Both the position numbers and the translations under genes were made by a program. Of a stretch of DNA of 64,000 bases, positions 23,658-32,870 are shown in pieces (positions within the stretch are counted from its first letter, which is position 1; every line of letters begins with the position of its first letter). The DNA comes from Bdellovibrionales bacterium (GTDB taxonomy: Bacteria; Bdellovibrionota; Bdellovibrionia; Bdellovibrionales; DASUEL01), in contig JBFWOZ010000007.1 in NCBI GenBank assembly GCA_050250255.1, positions 1 to 64,000 on the forward strand. The letters run 5' to 3'. The notes under the pieces were generated by a model that saw only the letters and a program-made list of their open reading frames with translations, searched no databases and had not been told where the DNA came from.

Positions 23658-23821
23658 AGGTTGGAGGTTTGGGGTTTATCGTTTGAGGTTTGTCGTACCG
23701 TTAGAGGTTTACCGTTTGAGTTTTCGGTTGAGTACCGCCTGAGATTTAGACCTCCAACCTCCAACCTTTAAACGGTACCTCAAACCCTAAACCTCAAACG
23801 ACAAACCTCCAACCGTAAACC
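23658..23821. repeat. Inverted array of degenerate heptamer repeats
   Basis: Left arm GGTTGGA/GGTTTGG/CGTTTGA/GGTTTGT units; right arm complementary CCTCCAA/CTCAAAC/GACAAAC units. Confidence 0.8.
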
Positions 23822-24450
23822 TATGTCGTCACCAACACCGCTCTAACAGGAGAAGCATCCGCGCTAGCAATCTTCAACGGCATCGCAATCAACGTATAGT
23901 TACCAGGCTGTACATGAGCAAGAACAAGTCCTTCGAGATTCACAATTTGATTTTTCGAAATCGCTTGATGGCTTTCAAGAATTTTGTCAGCAAAAGGGTC
24001 AATGGAAGGAGTGTCGATTCCTATCAGGAGCACGTTCTTTTCGGACAAAAATTCAATCAGCTCGGGTGAAAGACTATTGAAATCTTCATTGAAATGATTG
24101 GGATCGGGAAAGGAATTTGTTTTGAGGAGTATTCTCTGCGAGGTGATGGATTCTTTTAGATCTTGAACTTGGATTCGCTTTCCTCGAGGGATATTCACTT
24201 CTAGCACCTGACAGTGACCGTAATAAGGTTCGAGCTCCATACGATCAATGCTCGGACCACTTCGTAGGTAGTGAGAGCGGGCGTCGGCATGAGCACCTAA
24301 ATGTACGGTTGTATGAATAGAACTGAGTCCAATGTTCGCGCCTTGCTCCATATCTAACGAAATGTTGCGAGTAAAAGGCGTATCGCCTGGCCAAACCGCA
24401 ATCTTTTCTGAAATGAGTGGCGAAATATCAATGAATTGGTTCTTCTTCAT
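23821..24450 (-). CDS. kynB: Cyclase family, kynurenine formamidase-like
   Basis: VWPGD, HLGAHAD metal motif, GIDTPSID, LEGL, DASPVRAVL. Confidence 0.82.
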   Translation of the reverse strand: MKKNQFIDISPLISEKIAVWPGDTPFTRNISLDMEQGANIGLSSIHTTVHLGAHADARSHYLRSGPSIDRMELEPYYGHCQVLEVNIPRGKRIQVQDLKESITSQRILLKTNSFPDPNHFNEDFNSLSPELIEFLSEKNVLLIGIDTPSIDPFADKILESHQAISKNQIVNLEGLVLAHVQPGNYTLIAMPLKIASADASPVRAVLVTT

Positions 24451-24457
24451 AATCCTC

Positions 24458-25825
24458 TTATAAGGTCGCGATCACTTTAAATTCCACAGCGATAGGCGTA
24501 GGTAAGGCGATCACCGCCAGCGTTGTACGGGTTGCTTGAATCTTCGAAAAATATTCCGCGTAAACTTTATTGAAGGTCGCAAAGTCACGATCCATATCGA
24601 TGAGATAAACGGTCACATCAAAAACTTTTTCCAGTGAAGAACCGGATTCTTCCAAAATTCGTTTTATGTTCTCGATGACCGCTCGGGTTTGTAATTCTAC
24701 GTCATACTTCTGAATATTTCCTTGAGCATCACGAACGGGGCCTCCAGGAATGGCATTTGTTTCTGGTTGTCTTGGGCCAACTCCGGAAAGAAAAAGAAGA
24801 TTCCCCACTTTACGTGCATGTGGGTAAGCCCCCACAGGCTTTGGTGCTTTCGAAGAGTGAGCGTGGACGGCGGACGAAGTGGATGTGGTTGTCTGAGTGA
24901 CCAAAGGTTGAGCTATCGTCTCAACGGGTTGAGCGGAAAGAACATTCTGATTTCCTTTGAATGTTTCCGTATCCTCTTCATCGAACTCTCTTTCCATCCC
25001 GGCTTTGTCAGAAGGAGTGAGTCCTACGAGTGCGGCACCCGTACCGTAAATAGGCTGATATTCAAACACCTTGCCTTCGTAGTGATTGTTTTGCCCCATC
25101 GCCGAAGCCAACCACCAGAGAGCTTTCATTTTTTGATCGCCATTGGCCTGAGCACTGAACTCTCTGGCTAATTGGGAGACGTCTTCAAGCCGACCATCAG
25201 CAAGAAGTTCCAAGAGTTTGCGGTTCCACTCATCATCTTTACTCGAATAAATACGATCCTCCTTAGGATTGATCTTTTTCGAGAACATGCGGTGAGAAAG
25301 AGAAGTGACCGCGATCACTACGGTTTTTTTATTTTGTGAGAGAATCGCATCACGAGTGGCTTTTCCTAAGACGAGCGTTTCGGCTCGATCCGCGTACATG
25401 TTGCACGAGAGTACGCATGCGGGAAATTTATTTTTCGGATTGAGAAGTTTTAGAGCCACGACCGTTCCGGTATCAATCGGAAAACCTTTGTAGGCGACAG
25501 TTCGTGCATGTAAGCCTCTTTTTTGTGCGGCCTTCTCAAGCTCAGAGGCGTAACTTGCATCCATCTTAAATTGGTAAGGAATTTCCCCAAGCGCATGAAA
25601 CTCTTGGTCCACATGAGTCCATTGGGGTTCAGGATCTGCTTGAATTTGATGGCCGATCACGCTTGGCCACTGCGAGCTATACACCATGATAAGATCAGGT
25701 TTGATTTCTTCTATCTCTGCGCAGACTTTTTCAAAAGATTTACGTAATGCGCCCCAACCCTCGTTTTGATCAGCGGCTAAGAGAGGATGAGGTTTTCCGG
25801 GTACGATATATCCTTTAACAATCAT
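24458..25825 (-). CDS. 2-aminophenol 1,6-dioxygenase alpha subunit fused to RidA-family (2-aminomuconate deaminase-like) domain
   Basis: N-terminal LigB-like part (YSSQW, FPIDTGT, GTGAA); C-terminal APKPVGAYPHARKVGNLLFLSG...ATRTT...LPTPIAVEFK. Confidence 0.85.
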   Translation of the reverse strand: MIVKGYIVPGKPHPLLAADQNEGWGALRKSFEKVCAEIEEIKPDLIMVYSSQWPSVIGHQIQADPEPQWTHVDQEFHALGEIPYQFKMDASYASELEKAAQKRGLHARTVAYKGFPIDTGTVVALKLLNPKNKFPACVLSCNMYADRAETLVLGKATRDAILSQNKKTVVIAVTSLSHRMFSKKINPKEDRIYSSKDDEWNRKLLELLADGRLEDVSQLAREFSAQANGDQKMKALWWLASAMGQNNHYEGKVFEYQPIYGTGAALVGLTPSDKAGMEREFDEEDTETFKGNQNVLSAQPVETIAQPLVTQTTTSTSSAVHAHSSKAPKPVGAYPHARKVGNLLFLSGVGPRQPETNAIPGGPVRDAQGNIQKYDVELQTRAVIENIKRILEESGSSLEKVFDVTVYLIDMDRDFATFNKVYAEYFSKIQATRTTLAVIALPTPIAVEFKVIATL

Positions 25826-26700
25826 GACATACTCCAGCTCACCACGGCATTGCCGGTACCAATCACGCTTCCATAGGCGTGAACCTCAGCTGGGGATTCA
25901 GGGAAGTCCATGCTGCTCAGAAGCCAGCTCAACCCGCCGGTTTTACATTCACTCACAGATTGATCAATGAAGTCGGTCATCACATCAAAGAGTTGTTTCG
26001 ACTTTCCTTTTTTCATGAGTTTTAAAACCATCATGTCCCATAGATACTGATTGTGGTTGTAGATATGTTCGTGAGTCATGTCTTCGGGGAGCGCGGGTTC
26101 TTCGGTGAAGTGGCGGTGGCTTAAAGAAGTGCTTGCGAGTAACAAAGCTCTCTTACCTGATTTTTCAACGGCCTTTCGAGTGGCTTCGCCAAGCTTTAAC
26201 ATCTCTTGTTGGCCCACATCATTACTATAGTCAAAGTAGGCGGCATTGGCAGAAATGGAAACGATAGGTTTATCGAATGTGGGGTTGATCATGTGTCCAG
26301 AAATAATAGTTCCGTAATCCACTCGGAAAGATGGATTCGTCATCAGTTCACTTTGTAAACCAACACCGACAATTTCTTTGTGTAAGAGTTTTGCAAGGTC
26401 TGTGTCGACTTTCATTTTATAATGATAACGAAACAAGTTAGGGAAGACCGGATCTACGGAGAGGCTCGACATTTCGGGAACACATAAGACGTGATGACCC
26501 GTGTGGGTAAACCAATGCGGCGTGTGTACGATGATCACATCGTAATCACTGGCATTGATAGTTTTTCGACAACGCTCGTAACCCCATCGCAATTCTTCCC
26601 AACCACATTCAGACTTAGGTTCATTTTGCGGAGGATTTTCGGCGTACACCAGATGTGGAGGATGCGGAGCTAAAACTCCCGCAACAATTTTTCCACTCAT
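25822..26700 (-). CDS. amnB: 2-aminophenol 1,6-dioxygenase beta (catalytic) subunit
   Basis: APHPPHLVYAENPPQNEP signature; H13, H62, Y129, H195 and E251 fall at the positions I recall for the Comamonas CNB-1 enzyme. Confidence 0.93.
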   Translation of the reverse strand: MSGKIVAGVLAPHPPHLVYAENPPQNEPKSECGWEELRWGYERCRKTINASDYDVIIVHTPHWFTHTGHHVLCVPEMSSLSVDPVFPNLFRYHYKMKVDTDLAKLLHKEIVGVGLQSELMTNPSFRVDYGTIISGHMINPTFDKPIVSISANAAYFDYSNDVGQQEMLKLGEATRKAVEKSGKRALLLASTSLSHRHFTEEPALPEDMTHEHIYNHNQYLWDMMVLKLMKKGKSKQLFDVMTDFIDQSVSECKTGGLSWLLSSMDFPESPAEVHAYGSVIGTGNAVVSWSMS

Positions 26701-28148
26701 AAATGTTCTCCTGTATTGATACAGACAGTTTTTGTCTCGCTGAAAAACTCAAGACTCAGTTTTCCACCCTCACGTCCCACACCGCTGTCTTTCACACCAC
26801 CAAAGGGAACACGCAAATCTCTCATGAGCCACGTGTTCACCCAAACCGTTCCGGCTTGAATGAGGTGAGCCACTCGATGAGCACGGTTTAAATTTTCCGT
26901 CCAAATCGAAGCGCTCAAGCCGTAATTGAGGTGGTTACAGGATTCGATGACCTCGGACTCAGATTCAAATGCATGAATGGTTACCACAGGACCAAAAATT
27001 TCTTCTTGGGCTGTTCGACACGTGTCGGGAAGATCGGCGATGATTGTAGGGGGATAGAAAAAACCGTTGGCGTTATTTCCAGAGAGTGTGGGTTTCTGTC
27101 CTCCAAGAACAATGCGCCCGCCTTCTTCTTGAGCGAGCGTGACATACTTTTCAATTTTGTCTCGGTGCGCGGAGGAAATCAAAGAACCAAATTGAGTGGT
27201 CATATCGGTTGGATCACCCATTTTCCAAGATTTCACTTCTTCAACCAAGCGTTCGAGAAATTTTTTGTAGATGTTTTTCTCAACGTAAATGCGTGAACCA
27301 CAAAGACAAATTTGTCCCTGATTTAAAAAGCTGGAACGAGCGACGCCCTTAACGGCTTTATCCATATCACATTCAGAAAATACAACTGTCGGATTTTTTC
27401 CGCCCATTTCGAGGCTTGTTTTTTTGAAAGATTCCGAAGTGAGTTGCGACACACGACGACCCGTCACCGTGCCTCCGGTAAAGGAAACCGCTTTGACGAG
27501 AGGGTGTTTTACAAGTGGTTCGCCGATTTTAGGTCCAAGTCCATGAACAACGTTAAAAATTCCCGCAGGTGCTTTGATGTCATGAAAGGCTTGGGCCAAT
27601 CGATTAGCTGTAAGCGGAGTGAGTTCACTAGGTTTAGCTACTACGGTATTTCCCATAGCGAGAGCTGGCGCGAGTTTCCAAGTAAGAAGATAAAGAGGAA
27701 GATTCCATGGAGTGATTAAACTCACCACTCCGAGCGGTTGTCGGATCGAATAACTAAATCCATTGGGAGTATTAAAAAAATCCGTATTGTTTTGTTGAAT
27801 GGCTTGAGAGAAAAAACGAAGGTTACTGATCGCACGCGGAATGTCTAGCTCTCGGCAGAGAGAAAAAGGTTTACCGGTGTCCAGACATTCCAGTTCACAA
27901 AACTCTTGAAAGTTTCTTTCAATTTCAGAGGCCAAGCGTTCGAGAAGATCCGCGCGTTCTTTGAGAGTGGTTTTAGACCAAGTTTCAAATGCATGAGTCG
28001 CGGCTTCAATCGCTTTACTGCCATCGGAAGCTTGGCTCGAAGGAATCTGACAAATCAACTCTCCAGTTGCGGGATTGAGATTGGGCATCGTCTCTCTGGT
28101 CTCAGACCATTTGCCACCGATGTAATTGAGCACATTTGAAATTTTCAT
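26697..28148 (-). CDS. 2-aminomuconic/2-hydroxymuconic semialdehyde dehydrogenase (ALDH8-like)
   Basis: LDIPRA, PWNLPLYLLTWK, LEMGGKN, NQGQICLCGSR, RDLRVPFGG; ATG 28148 overlaps the upstream stop. Confidence 0.9.
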   Translation of the reverse strand: MKISNVLNYIGGKWSETRETMPNLNPATGELICQIPSSQASDGSKAIEAATHAFETWSKTTLKERADLLERLASEIERNFQEFCELECLDTGKPFSLCRELDIPRAISNLRFFSQAIQQNNTDFFNTPNGFSYSIRQPLGVVSLITPWNLPLYLLTWKLAPALAMGNTVVAKPSELTPLTANRLAQAFHDIKAPAGIFNVVHGLGPKIGEPLVKHPLVKAVSFTGGTVTGRRVSQLTSESFKKTSLEMGGKNPTVVFSECDMDKAVKGVARSSFLNQGQICLCGSRIYVEKNIYKKFLERLVEEVKSWKMGDPTDMTTQFGSLISSAHRDKIEKYVTLAQEEGGRIVLGGQKPTLSGNNANGFFYPPTIIADLPDTCRTAQEEIFGPVVTIHAFESESEVIESCNHLNYGLSASIWTENLNRAHRVAHLIQAGTVWVNTWLMRDLRVPFGGVKDSGVGREGGKLSLEFFSETKTVCINTGEHL

Positions 28149-29233
28149 AGAAGACCTCTTTCGTAATCTTGCCAAGAATAATACCAACGATCTTGGTTGG
28201 GATCCCAATTGTCCCAGGTGGGAACAAGTTCTAATTTTGAAAGGAGAGAAGGCGGAACAATTCCAGGAACAAGAAACGCTTTTTGACGTTTCATAGAATA
28301 AGGATTGCGTAAATCAAAACCCAAAACGCCTAAAATTCCACGTGCGATATACCAGGTTGCTTGTGGGTTCCAGCCGTGAGCAATTTTAATAACGATACCT
28401 AACCCTTCAGGATAATCGGGATGGACGACCGAGAGTCCGAGTAAGCCATCGGCTCCCTCTTTCGCAAGTACCTTACCACCGCAGGCTTTTAAAATTGTGG
28501 AATCGAGACGATTGAATCCGCCTACGAGATCGGGGTGGCGAATCATCGCTTCCCAAATCCAGTTTTCATCTCGATGTTTTGCGAGACCTGAGAAAATTTT
28601 TGCAAGCTCAGTCACCGTATTGGAAAAAGTCGGTAGGCCACAACCGTCGCGAGCGACACGAAGAGGTTCCCAGGTTTTTCCGAGAAACTTTCTTGTTTCT
28701 TCAAGGTAGCCCATGAAAAAAGGATGCATCGGAAGCATATAGCCCGTGCGACTCCAGCCTTTGAGTTGGCAACCTGCTAAAATTGCGGCGTGTTCACCGG
28801 AACAGCAGTGATACCAGCGTCTGGGTCTGCGAACTTGTCTTCCAAATTGTACGAGAGGCACATCGAGAGGAGTTTGCATCAATCCCCAGTCGGATTCTTG
28901 AAGGATGGATTGAGCGGCGGCCACGTGTTCGGTATCACCGTTATGACTTGCAACCGAAATTGCTTTTTGTTCCCAATTCAAAACGTTCGCTAATTCTTTT
29001 TCAAAAACTTTTATCATGATCGGCTTCATCATGCTTCGTCCGTAACAGAGAACGTTTCCACCAAAGGAATGCACAACCTTATCACCACTGCACCAAGCGA
29101 TGGCTCCGTGAATGGTGGTTTCGCTCACATCATGTCTACGATAATCAACCAATGGTTCCCACTCCACATCTCGGCCGGTGGGGATACCTTTATGATCTTC
29201 ACCGATGGGACTTTTTGGGTAAAACTCGCTCAT
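28145..29233 (-). CDS. Class 3 (Rhizobium etli-type, asparaginase II family) asparaginase-like hydrolase
   Basis: RSMMKP (SxxK), ASHNG, CCSGEH (canonical NCSGKH), DGCGLP, AKEGADG. Confidence 0.85.
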   Translation of the reverse strand: MSEFYPKSPIGEDHKGIPTGRDVEWEPLVDYRRHDVSETTIHGAIAWCSGDKVVHSFGGNVLCYGRSMMKPIMIKVFEKELANVLNWEQKAISVASHNGDTEHVAAAQSILQESDWGLMQTPLDVPLVQFGRQVRRPRRWYHCCSGEHAAILAGCQLKGWSRTGYMLPMHPFFMGYLEETRKFLGKTWEPLRVARDGCGLPTFSNTVTELAKIFSGLAKHRDENWIWEAMIRHPDLVGGFNRLDSTILKACGGKVLAKEGADGLLGLSVVHPDYPEGLGIVIKIAHGWNPQATWYIARGILGVLGFDLRNPYSMKRQKAFLVPGIVPPSLLSKLELVPTWDNWDPNQDRWYYSWQDYERGLL

Positions 29234-30465
29234 GGACGAAGCCTTTCTTTTACCAATGGGATCACTTTAGTCTTAAAAGCATTCATGTTTTCAACGATGC
29301 GACCACTGTCATGATTAAAAAAGTCAAACCATAACATGAGCCGATCATCAGGATGAAAACGTTCGACAATTTGGGTTGCAACTTCCTCAGCTGTTCCTAT
29401 GAGAGCGTTATCCGCGGCGTTGGAAATTTTCTTAGGATCCAAAGTTCCTTCAATGGCTTTCCAGTACGCCGAGAGGGCTTCCTGAGCTTCTGCGCGCGCT
29501 TTCTGAGATTTTTGTTCTGTTGAAAGATTTGTTTGTTCGTTGAGAAATACAAAAACGGTTCGTGGCATGTATTCGCGTTTCCACGGCCCACCAGCGTGGT
29601 GATAGGACTTTTGCATTCGTGCGTGGGTTTCATCAATCACTTCAGGCTTAGTGATGGAAAGATTAAACACGCGAGTTGGGAAAAACTGGTTTGCATGTTC
29701 TTGAGCCTGAGGATCGTGAGAACCGATGATGGGTTGGCACAAGTCTCGCTGCCAATCCTGAGGAATAATTTTTATTTTTTCAAACTGCCAACGATTAGTG
29801 ACGACGATGTGGTCATTTTTCTTTTGCGAAGCTTCGGCGCTTTTCCAGGCGTTGTCCCAGTCTTCTTTTGTACGGAAATCCGAAGGCTTTAAAGTTGCTG
29901 GTGACACGTCGTTAGAAGCAATGGCTTCACCACGTAAAAGACGCAAAAAGATTTCGGTTGCCTCAAGAAATATTTTTCCTTTTAAGACGGGCCATACTTG
30001 TTCTTCAAAAGAATTACGAGCGAGAACTCCGCTCACACGATTCATAAATTCAAAACGACCGGCCGAAAAACCTAAATGTATTTTTCTTTTCTCTTCTGGG
30101 TTTAAACCATGAAGTGTGCAAAAAGTGGCAAGCTTTTCAGCCGCTGCGATAGGACCACCGTTACAAACGATGTTCATGACGGCAGAGCCTGTTTCGATTT
30201 TTTTTGTCTTATGGAAAACTTGGTGGGAAAGCTGAAAAATATCGGCATTGAGTCCGACTTCCCCTTCCCAATGAGGCACGACCACGTGTTTATGTGTTTT
30301 TTGAGTTTGCGCAGAGAAGTGGGATTCGGCAATCCACGCGGTCTCATAACCGAGTTCATCGGCGGCGATAACTTGTTCAAAAAAGTTTTCGAACATGACC
30401 TGTTCGGTCGGAAGGTAGCCTTGCACCGGCGTTTGGCTGATGGAGAAAAAAATATCAAACTTCAA
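29230..30465 (-). CDS. Luciferase-like (LLM) flavin-dependent monooxygenase
   Basis: MKFDIFFS, AADELGYETAWIAESH, LGFSAG, IGTAEEVATQI; TTG start. Confidence 0.85.
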   Translation of the reverse strand: MKFDIFFSISQTPVQGYLPTEQVMFENFFEQVIAADELGYETAWIAESHFSAQTQKTHKHVVVPHWEGEVGLNADIFQLSHQVFHKTKKIETGSAVMNIVCNGGPIAAAEKLATFCTLHGLNPEEKRKIHLGFSAGRFEFMNRVSGVLARNSFEEQVWPVLKGKIFLEATEIFLRLLRGEAIASNDVSPATLKPSDFRTKEDWDNAWKSAEASQKKNDHIVVTNRWQFEKIKIIPQDWQRDLCQPIIGSHDPQAQEHANQFFPTRVFNLSITKPEVIDETHARMQKSYHHAGGPWKREYMPRTVFVFLNEQTNLSTEQKSQKARAEAQEALSAYWKAIEGTLDPKKISNAADNALIGTAEEVATQIVERFHPDDRLMLWFDFFNHDSGRIVENMNAFKTKVIPLVKERLRP

Positions 30466-30503: not shown

Positions 30504-31292
30504 CTAGAGGCTTTTCGTTCTGCCGCCGTCGACCGCTAAACTCACGCCTCTCACATAGGATGCGGCGGGTGAGGCCAAAAAACAAATTGCGTGGGCAATT
30601 TCAGAAGGATCGGCAAAGCGGCCCTCAGGTACAGTTTGGAGCCATTCTTTCTCTATTTGTTCGACGGAGCAACCCCTTTTTTCGGAGGCCATTTTCATCA
30701 AAGCCTGTAGGCGATGGGTGTTGGTGTAGCCCGGCAAAACGTTATTAATTGTGACCGATTTTGGAAGCTCCATGGCGAGTGTTTTAGACCAAGAGGCCAT
30801 AGCCCCTCGTAAAGTGTTGCTGACGCCAAGGTTCGGGAGAGGTTCACGTACCGAAGTAGAAATAACGTTAATGATTCGCCCATAAAATTCTGCCTGCATT
30901 GAGGGAAGGCAAACCTGTACGAGAGTTTGGGCAGAAAAAAGATGGCGCTTTAAGGCAAGAAGATACTCCTCAGAAGAGGCTTTAAGAGCGGGACCGGGAT
31001 TTGGGCCCGCAGAGTTATTCACTAAAATATGGATCGGACCTTTTGTTCCGATGACTTGCTCGACTCGCGTTTTTAATTCTGCGGTATTCTCCATATCGAC
31101 TGCGAGAATCTCTCCAACTTGTCCACCTTGCGTGACGATTTCGTTCTTTAATTCGAAAAGCGCGTCTTCGCTTCTCGCTAGAAGGTGAATCTGTGCGCCA
31201 AGTTTTGCGAGCTCGAGAGCGGTCGCCCGTCCAATTCCTTTGCTGGCACCACAAACTAAAGCAGTTTTATGTTTTAAAGAAAATGGATTCAT
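30504..31292 (-). CDS. Atypical short-chain dehydrogenase/reductase
   Basis: GASKGIG, VNNSAGP, SNTLR in place of YxxxK, NNVLPG, VDGG. Confidence 0.9.
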   Translation of the reverse strand: MNPFSLKHKTALVCGASKGIGRATALELAKLGAQIHLLARSEDALFELKNEIVTQGGQVGEILAVDMENTAELKTRVEQVIGTKGPIHILVNNSAGPNPGPALKASSEEYLLALKRHLFSAQTLVQVCLPSMQAEFYGRIINVISTSVREPLPNLGVSNTLRGAMASWSKTLAMELPKSVTINNVLPGYTNTHRLQALMKMASEKRGCSVEQIEKEWLQTVPEGRFADPSEIAHAICFLASPAASYVRGVSLAVDGGRTKSL

Positions 31293-31307: not shown

Positions 31308-32870
31308 TTAGCCTCGTGTCGTTTTAAAATAGCGTGAAACAAATTCGATCCCCCAGCGTACGCCAAAGCCGGTGGTTAATGTATTCACTAGTCCCAGGCC
31401 TCCTTTGTTTTCGCAGGCAGCTAGGTCTACGTGAACCCAGTTTGTTTCTTCACCAATAAAATTTTGCAAAAAAGTAGCGGCGTAAATGTGATCTCCGGGA
31501 CTTTCCATGCGGCACTGAAGAAGATCGGCCACCGTGGATTTGATTCCGTCTTTGTAGTCTTCACCGATAGGGAAAGACCAAGTTCGTTCCCCACTTCGTT
31601 CACCTGCGGCTACTGCTTGTTCTAGGAGAGCAGGAGGTCCGCCAAAAATAGCAGAACGTTTTGTATCGAGAGCGTACACGGCAACGCCCGTGAGAGTCGC
31701 AAAATCAATTACAAGATCAGGATTTATTTTACGTGCGAGCGCCAATGTGTCGGCGAGAGCCATGCGCCCTTCGGCATCGGTATTTTGTACTTCGATGGTG
31801 GTCCCATCCATGGCCGTCACCACCTCATTGGGTTTGTAGGCGGTAGGAGAAATTAAATTTTCCGTGAGCGCGAGGTAGGCGTGTACTTCGTGGGGGAAAT
31901 CTATTTTCAAAAGGGTTTCGAAAATGGCGAGCGCCACTGCGGAACCAGTCATGTCGTTCTTCATGCCGTACATGTGTTTTACTTTGACGTCGTAACCACC
32001 GGTATCAAAACAAAGACCTTTGCCAACAAGTGCGAGTTTTTTAGAATTCTTTTTACCGGGCTTCCAAATGTGAACGATGCCTGTAGACTCTGGAGCGGCT
32101 CGTGCTACTGCAAGAAAAGCTCCGGCTCCCATTTTTTCTAATTTTTTGTGATCATAGAATTCGAATTTATATTTTTGTTCTTTAGCTCGAGCTTCCACCA
32201 ACTCCGAATAGGTTTGCGGGTTGAGCATATTGGGTGGAATTTCCGCTAATGTGCGAACAAAGTTATTCGCTTTTCCAAGCATAAAACTTTGTTCCGCAAT
32301 CTGTGAGATTTCCTTCGGACTTAAAGAACTTTGCACCTGAAGTTCGAAGTGTCTTGTTTTGACCTTCTTGGGTTTTTTGCTTGTTTTTGGGCTCTCCCAA
32401 TGTACGAGTGCCAATAGACAAGAAAAAGCTTCGAGAGCTATTGGTTGCAGATTTTTAGGGAGGTCGCTGAGGACTAATTCGATGGGACCTTCCCAATCCA
32501 ACTTAAGTGGGACTGCAAAGAGTTCGCGAAACCAAGAGTGGAGTTCGAAAACAGTGACATTGGGCTTTAGAAAAAGAAACTGACAAGCTCCGCCTTCGTC
32601 AAAATGAACGGTTGCAGCGCTCTTCACCTTCTCGTCGTTTTCCCAATCTTTCATTTTTTTGGTCAGTTGCTTTTTAGCGCCTTCAGACCACTGATTTTTT
32701 TTAGGGAAACTATCGGTCACTTTTTTGGATTGGCTTAACGGTGCGATCACGCAAGTGAGATTTTGGAAGCGAGAAGTAGGCTTACCTGAGCTCTTTAAAA
32801 CCTTCAGTGAGAGAGTTTGTTCAGAGGCTTTAACCTTGTCTTTGGGGAGGAATTTTGTGAGTGAATTCAT
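31308..32870 (-). CDS. M17 leucyl aminopeptidase
   Basis: VGKGLCFDTGG, MKNDM, NTDAEGR, ATLTG. Confidence 0.93.
   Translation of the reverse strand: MNSLTKFLPKDKVKASEQTLSLKVLKSSGKPTSRFQNLTCVIAPLSQSKKVTDSFPKKNQWSEGAKKQLTKKMKDWENDEKVKSAATVHFDEGGACQFLFLKPNVTVFELHSWFRELFAVPLKLDWEGPIELVLSDLPKNLQPIALEAFSCLLALVHWESPKTSKKPKKVKTRHFELQVQSSLSPKEISQIAEQSFMLGKANNFVRTLAEIPPNMLNPQTYSELVEARAKEQKYKFEFYDHKKLEKMGAGAFLAVARAAPESTGIVHIWKPGKKNSKKLALVGKGLCFDTGGYDVKVKHMYGMKNDMTGSAVALAIFETLLKIDFPHEVHAYLALTENLISPTAYKPNEVVTAMDGTTIEVQNTDAEGRMALADTLALARKINPDLVIDFATLTGVAVYALDTKRSAIFGGPPALLEQAVAAGERSGERTWSFPIGEDYKDGIKSTVADLLQCRMESPGDHIYAATFLQNFIGEETNWVHVDLAACENKGGLGLVNTLTTGFGVRWGIEFVSRYFKTTRG

Follow-up and report, generated by a model that had tools for sequence, protein, structure and literature searches.

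A 64,000-nucleotide stretch of a Bdellovibrionales contig (hereafter the window) raises the question of which reaction is catalyzed by a luciferase-like monooxygenase (LLM) encoded next to an asparaginase homolog in a cluster of 2-aminophenol cleavage genes. The genes concerned are all on the minus strand:

23821-24450, minus strand: KynB, a kynurenine formamidase-like cyclase (TIGR03035, 200.8 bits, slightly below the cut-off of 223)
24458-25825, minus strand: AmnA-like 2-aminophenol dioxygenase alpha domain fused to a Rid-family (aminomuconate deaminase-like) domain (LigB 20-266, PF01042 326-454)
25822-26700, minus strand: AmnB-like, 2-aminophenol 1,6-dioxygenase beta subunit (3VSG_B 6e-105, 8IHG_A 1e-102, 7TXY_B 1e-99)
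26697-28148, minus strand: AMSDH-like, 2-aminomuconate 6-semialdehyde dehydrogenase (top seven PDB hits all AMSDH, E about 1e-140 to 1e-142)
28145-29233, minus strand: class-3 (Rhizobium-type) asparaginase homolog, 362 aa (PF06089, E 3.9e-49)
29230-30465, minus strand: LLM of an isolated subfamily, 411 aa, TTG start
30504-31292, minus strand: short-chain dehydrogenase/reductase (SDR), a putative lower-pathway reductase
31308-32870, minus strand: M17 leucyl aminopeptidase, directly upstream of the SDR

By homology, the 2-aminophenol meta-cleavage set downstream of the LLM is complete, with a two-subunit dioxygenase, an AMSDH, and a deaminase. The AmnB-like protein matches HpaD at an E-value of only 3e-12, and the AmnA-like alpha subunit is 30% identical to the beta subunit. 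The ATG of the AMSDH-like gene at 28148 overlaps the stop of the upstream gene, and the LLM stop and the hydrolase start overlap as ATGA (29230-29233), in agreement with the translational coupling of these two genes claimed in the first-pass annotation of this DNA. The M17 aminopeptidase gene was not seen to recur next to related loci.

A genome scan for LLM relatives returned at least 580 stretches, the best 80 of which, many ending at contig edges, were analyzed as loci. These 80 belong to Bdellovibrionota, Myxococcota, Planctomycetota, Acidobacteriota, Krumholzibacteriota, and marine Thermoplasmatota, and in a quick tree the LLM lies nearest to a Bdellovibrionales record (64%). Among the best 80 of at least 580 loci, the LLM neighbors include the asparaginase homolog (71 loci), an aldehyde dehydrogenase (ALDH, 64), AmnA/B (49), Rid (47), an SDR match (40), KynB (32), and TDO (16). 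In the same best 80, the four-nucleotide overlap of hydrolase start and LLM stop is possible in 33; the hydrolase otherwise lies within 200 nt after the LLM (18), farther away (13), or on the opposite strand (7), and is absent from the locus in nine. The LLM-asparaginase cluster is conserved across Bdellovibrionota, Myxococcota, Planctomycetota, Acidobacteriota, and marine Thermoplasmatota, and is reduced in one genome (G224, L105:8462-12269) to a minimal LLM-AsnII-KynB-TDO run, where AsnII denotes the asparaginase homolog. The LLM subfamily is currently annotated as SsuD/Mer-like oxidoreductase or generic LLM, and its partner, by Pfam, as asparaginase II. An orphan homolog (48%) is present on the Streptomyces clavuligerus megaplasmid (L145:20001-21245; NZ_CP027859.1 532574-533773), with AGSH in place of the AESH motif described below and no pathway neighbors, and possibly has a different function. 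This Streptomyces is a cultured source of an LLM homolog.

The LLM itself is a real, conserved, uncharacterized enzyme, and its description in the first-pass annotation holds. The 411-aa open reading frame was confirmed, with homologs that align from residue 1 and thereby support the TTG start, and in length it is an ordinary family member, the alignment having a median of 410. The AESH motif, reported in place of AEHH, is found at A46-E47-S48-H49, and the apparent insertions appear in profile alignments with 8K74 and 8CBB as 15-17 extra columns directly after the motif and a further 6-7 near residue 120. AESH occurs in 110 of the 133 rows of the family alignment and AEAH in 11 of 133, while His at the Ser48-equivalent position is seen in P0127 alone among the family rows listed; in profile alignments the matching place reads EHH in LuxA (1BRL) and 8CBB, and QHH in 8K74. 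The PF00296 match (42.8 bits, cut-off 27.9) covers the N-terminal part only. A luciferase-type TIM barrel spans the whole chain, with only 317-320 of the 411 residues alignable to the three best structural matches, and luciferase-type enzymes appear to rank closest in structure, ahead of RutA, SsuD, and F420 enzymes.

A light-emitting luciferase is disfavored. Compared with LuxA and the homodimeric Enhygromyxa luciferase (8CBB), the LLM carries Ser48 where LuxA has His44, a residue described as catalytic (PMC7671414), and it has no lux operon context; lux genes do not recur in the best 80 of at least 580 loci, where the recurring neighbors are genes of tryptophan and aminophenol catabolism. 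The AESH motif speaks mainly against a light-emitting luciferase, and conveys little about the reaction of the LLM.

As described in the sources cited, the type II Baeyer-Villiger LLMs, namely the 2,5-/3,6-diketocamphane monooxygenases (DKCMOs) (PMC6352141), the progesterone LLM EGO55_13860 (PMC12239570), and AbmE2, resemble the LLM in their luciferase TIM barrel, in a flavin reductase encoded elsewhere, and in the ketone-to-ester chemistry that we propose for it. The LLM differs from them in its larger insertions and in its distance in sequence: it is only 12-13% identical to 3,6-DKCMO, which lies about 4 Z units below the luciferases in structure comparison, and a phmmer search gave no link to a characterized Baeyer-Villiger LLM with E < 0.06. 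Unlike theirs, its proposed substrate is an amino-acid aryl ketone, which would require aryl migration.

The first-pass annotation also reported no recognizable flavin reductase in the window, and our searches agree. The genome to which the window belongs (99.2% complete) contains no match to PF01613 reductases; its candidate reductases, comprising two FMN_red genes with a further weak match, a pair of nitroreductases, and a single gene of FNR type, are all on other contigs, with none on that of the window. Nor was any flavin-reductase family found among 137 representatives of 187 neighboring ORFs from 70 of the best 80 of at least 580 loci (ORFs of 120-420 aa within 1.5 kb of a pathway gene, a mechanical choice that may miss genes in GC-rich loci). 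Supply of reduced flavin in trans is plausible and ordinary for such enzymes. Published precedents are an LLM that oxidizes an acyclic ketone in Baeyer-Villiger fashion while its reductase is encoded at a distance (PMC12239570), and plasmid-encoded DKCMOs served by chromosomal reductases (PMC6352141). The missing adjacent reductase is ordinary, and gives little information on the reaction. The adjacent SDR is probably a lower-pathway enzyme, not the flavin reductase of the LLM. In a eukaryotic protein of 1501 aa (P0124, EukProt ANDGO_01838, presumably from the jakobid Andalucia godoyi, to which the ANDGO prefix points), this LLM (41%) is fused to a class-I GATase, ApbE, and a C-terminal part that, among Atlas clusters, comes nearest to PF01613-like flavin reductases (score 0.90), which we take as a lead only.

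The rest of the genome was searched for the enzymes that would precede and follow the LLM. TDO is encoded on another contig and NadA is present, while no kynureninase (KynU), KMO, or oxalocrotonate decarboxylase match was found in this 99.2%-complete genome; the HAO query also gave no match, but it matched nowhere and is uninformative there. A squalene-epoxidase-like FAD monooxygenase encoded elsewhere in the genome (L083:1477-2841, G000:C41) is not KMO. The SDR has a 50% ortholog (L119:9670-10461) inside a canonical TDO-SDR-ALDH-Rid-HAO-ACMSD-KynU-KMO cluster without LLM, and was found in 22 of the 46 LLM carriers as well as in 18 non-carriers; it is a candidate enzyme for leaving 2-oxo-3-hexenedioate by reduction. 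It occurs in both pathway types (also at L121 and L122) and, in the loci seen, appears to alternate with the oxalocrotonate decarboxylase/hydratase pair; in genus g9 it is present alone in 15 of 21 genomes. The available part of a preprint on a 2-aminomuconate reductase (10.64898/2026.06.05.730449) mentions neither an SDR nor a route of the kind proposed here.

No prokaryote genome checked contained both the LLM and kynureninase. In a sample of 301 genomes from its own phylum, 46 carry the LLM and 72 KynU, and none carries both (about 11 expected); within the five families that hold both genes, the overlap is also zero (9.4 expected). A second phylum gave the same picture, with 29 LLM carriers (six of them already among the 50 cross-phylum carriers below), 38 genomes with KynU over the cut-off, and no overlap (about 5.5-6 expected) in 201 genomes. 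Related genomes are not independent, so P values for this exclusion are overstated and it is best read as a pattern. Among 50 of the best 80 of at least 580 loci whose genomes (completeness not given) were searched in full, KynU over the cut-off was found in none, six acidobacterial carriers having a kynureninase paralog at 114-125 bits against a cut-off of 246, and TDO was found in 47. KMO is present in all 27 KynU genomes tested (those of the 72 in the same order or in family f17; the KMO query was confirmed), while a KMO-level match was found in none of 96 carriers (46 own-phylum, 50 cross-phylum), one own-phylum carrier having paralogs of 31-33%. Conversely, AmnB is present in 36 of 45 LLM carriers and in none of the 27 KynU genomes.

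Gene order in sister loci shows the same exchange, with LLM and AmnAB in the slot of KynU, HAO, and ACMSD. The cluster in G127 reads Rid-ALDH-hydratase-decarboxylase-HAO-ACMSD-KynU-AsnII/KynB, that in G147 AmnB-AmnA-Rid-ALDH-hydratase-decarboxylase-LLM-AsnII/KynB, and that in G089 TDO-SDR-ALDH-Rid-HAO-ACMSD-(unassigned ORF of 274 aa)-KynU-KMO. Subtracting the shared genes leaves KMO, KynU, HAO, and ACMSD on one side, and LLM, the hydrolase, AmnB, and AmnA on the other. Since both sets end at 2-aminomuconate semialdehyde, the LLM and the hydrolase most likely bridge kynurenine to 2-aminophenol, and we consider it very probable that the LLM has a place in a kynureninase-free tryptophan route. 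The first-pass annotation had assigned to it the committed oxygenation step, and none of our tests spoke against that interpretation; gene context and mutual exclusion lend strong support to the role in place of KMO and KynU, while the chemistry is the less certain part.

The same data bear on an earlier alternative, in which the LLM hydroxylates and decarboxylates anthranilate to 2-aminophenol. This would feed AmnAB in one step, and KynB and TDO are part of an anthranilate route in other bacteria. Neither the genome of the window nor any carrier tested has a kynureninase over the cut-off, however, which leaves no catabolic source of anthranilate; the LLM itself occupies the KynU slot, and the hydrolase is left without a role, as had been pointed out in the first-pass annotation. 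We regard this alternative, weakened in this way, as very improbable.

It could also be argued that the substrate is not a tryptophan intermediate at all, for example another aminoaryl ketone or an aromatic amide from prey or detritus, and that the link to TDO and KynB is incidental. TDO is present in all 46 own-phylum carriers, yet also in 31 of 34 order-mates with neither kynureninase nor LLM (G056-G347), so that TDO at the genome level is not discriminating, and the orphan in S. clavuligerus shows that homologs exist outside the pathway context. Against this stand the physical linkage to KynB and TDO, including the minimal run in G224 and fusions of the asparaginase homolog to KynB, and the mutual exclusion of the LLM with KMO and KynU in two phyla, and such a substrate seems quite unlikely to us.

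If the LLM and its neighbor bridge kynurenine to 2-aminophenol, the nature of the neighbor constrains the chemistry. The nearest structures of the asparaginase homolog are ReAIV and ReAV (TM about 0.68, 22-23% identity), and it keeps R66, S67, K70, S96, K258, D196, C144, C198, and H148. Mapped by motif onto the ReAV numbering of PMC12292245, R66, S67, K70, S96, K258, and D196 correspond to Arg47, Ser48-Lys51, Ser80-Lys263, and Asp187. In ReAV, as described, Arg47 and the metal grip the substrate by its alpha-carboxylate and alpha-amino groups while Ser48 attacks its beta-carbonyl (PMC12292245, PMC12951835). The homolog is like ReAIV and ReAV in its fold, both Ser-Lys tandems, the Arg, and the Asp, but its Cys-Lys-Cys zinc site is incomplete: the position of ReAV Lys138 is E147, and is Glu in at least 69 of 78 rows. 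In a minority (L106:6364-7290, L107:8693-9733, and at least six rows from other loci) both zinc Cys are replaced, in a Ser/His/Asp pattern, which suggests a remodeled metal site. The ReAV-type catalytic residues and fold suit a beta-aspartyl ester or amide, and the partner is probably a beta-aspartyl ester or anilide hydrolase. By way of speculation, the GATase of P0124 may be an analog of this aspartyl hydrolase.

Kynurenine is an aspartate with a 2-aminophenyl group on its beta-carbonyl, and the mass balance closes: kynurenine + O + H2O = 2-aminophenol + aspartate. With a partner suited to a beta-aspartyl ester or amide, the simplest reaction of the LLM would be oxygen insertion with aryl migration, and the LLM would likely supply the ring oxygen between kynurenine and 2-aminophenol. 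Judged from sequence and gene context, a formal Baeyer-Villiger insertion by the LLM followed by aspartyl hydrolysis by its partner is the best reading, to which we give a probability of roughly 0.6. By family matches, TDO and KynB would convert tryptophan to kynurenine. The LLM, with O2 and reduced FMN from a housekeeping reductase, would place a single oxygen atom between ring and ketone carbonyl of kynurenine or N-formylkynurenine, through either nucleophilic attack by a peroxide or ipso-hydroxylation with acyl migration. From kynurenine the product would be the beta-(2-aminophenyl) ester of aspartate, which on chemical grounds may rearrange, its acyl group moving from O to N, to N4-(2-hydroxyphenyl)asparagine, a compound that resembles asparagine still more closely. 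The Ser-Lys hydrolase, whose catalytic residues are present, would release aspartate and 2-aminophenol from the ester or anilide, and AmnAB, AMSDH, and the Rid domain, all close homologs of characterized enzymes, would convert 2-aminophenol to 2-oxo-3-hexenedioate, the entry into the normal kynurenine lower pathway. In the N-formylkynurenine variant KynB would act last, as allowed by the AsnII-KynB fusions and by the LLM-AsnII-KynB-TDO order in G224.

The same products would arise if the LLM were a non-homologous kynurenine 3-hydroxylase and the asparaginase homolog cleaved the aryl-carbonyl C-C bond of 3-hydroxykynurenine; the genes, the mass balance, and the exclusion from KMO and KynU would all be identical. 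What separates the two is the hydrolase: a Ser-Lys amidase would have to expel an aryl carbanion equivalent, while the homolog keeps an ordinary amide/ester hydrolase center. The hydrolases known to carry out retro-Friedel-Crafts cleavage have polyphenols as substrates and share no kinship with it. We regard the 3-hydroxylase scheme as unlikely.

Alternatively, the LLM alone may be enough, through oxygenative cleavage of kynurenine or a self-hydrolysing ester, with its neighbor mainly an ordinary asparaginase or clean-up enzyme. The AsnII-KynB fusion occurs in 12 LLM carriers (one truncated by the contig end), but also in nine kynureninase genomes of family f17 that have KMO and KynU and no LLM (L099:11214-12815, L115:7612-9201, and seven more loci). 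The asparaginase domain is kept intact in these nine, with all catalytic residues in each of the eight that could be fully scored, and has not diverged faster within genera (ratio 1.19 versus 1.20), so at least that subfamily is useful without LLM. G281 carries the LLM without a linked hydrolase, and the window gene is the only PF06089 member of its genome. On the other side, the close hydrolase subfamily is 63-81% identical across phyla, better conserved than the LLM itself; all 33 genomes with a close homolog (E <= 1e-57) also carry the LLM; and the hydrolase departs from ReAV at the zinc-ligand Lys. Sufficiency of the LLM alone seems doubtful to us, and hydrolysis by the partner remains our preferred reading.

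Several observations count against the route with insertion and aspartyl hydrolysis. An AmnB match is missing from nine of 45 carriers (G224, G136, G248, G281, G084, G098, G112, G143, and G163). In G281 the run is LLM-KynB-TDO, and the only asparaginase match, a weak one, lies elsewhere in the genome. Further counter-evidence comes from the lack of a characterized Baeyer-Villiger LLM among the sequence relatives, from the AsnII-KynB fusions without LLM, and from the S. clavuligerus orphan. The minimal run in G224 would release 2-aminophenol without evident ring cleavage.

The proposed route shares TDO, KynB, AMSDH, the deaminase, and the lower-pathway SDR or decarboxylase/hydratase with the canonical kynurenine pathway, and has the LLM, the asparaginase homolog, and AmnAB in place of KMO, KynU, HAO, and ACMSD. 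It would release aspartate instead of alanine and CO2, and form no quinolinate; the genome of the window has NadA. The sequence aryl ketone, aryl ester, phenol, ring cleavage is similar to that of the 4-hydroxyacetophenone pathway, which uses HAPMO, an esterase, and a ring-cleavage dioxygenase; HAPMO is a single-component FAD/NADPH type I enzyme, and the LLM fold is unrelated to it. The amn/cnb and ARO clusters likewise contain homologs of AmnB, AmnA, AMSDH, and the deaminase, but serve nitroaromatics or, in the case of the ARO microcompartment, an upper pathway that the paper describing it gives as unknown, as it does the compound from which 2-aminophenol arises (PMC10470539). Luciferase, asparaginase, kynurenine, and tryptophan are not mentioned in the main text of that paper. 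A title- and abstract-level search of mainly open literature found no published description of an LLM/asparaginase route for tryptophan.

Taken as a whole, the odds are somewhat better than even that the LLM is the key enzyme of an aerobic pathway for tryptophan that is widespread among predatory bacteria, planctomycetes, acidobacteria, and marine archaea. It would act as a flavin Baeyer-Villiger oxygenase that converts kynurenine to an aspartyl ester, and its "asparaginase II" partner would in reality be an esterase or anilidase for aryl-aspartates. Such a pathway would bypass KMO, KynU, HAO, and ACMSD, and give the 2-aminophenol dioxygenases a natural source of substrate. If true, it would be an additional route in core amino-acid catabolism, an undescribed way to break down tryptophan, with a share of 14-15% of genomes in each of the two phylum samples (46 of 301 and 29 of 201). 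Two subfamilies would be reassigned, one now annotated as SsuD/Mer-like or generic LLM and the other as asparaginase II, and the first would provide a catalyst for Baeyer-Villiger oxidation of an amino-acid aryl ketone. The enzymes that cleave 2-aminophenol in nitroaromatic degraders would, in turn, have a natural origin.
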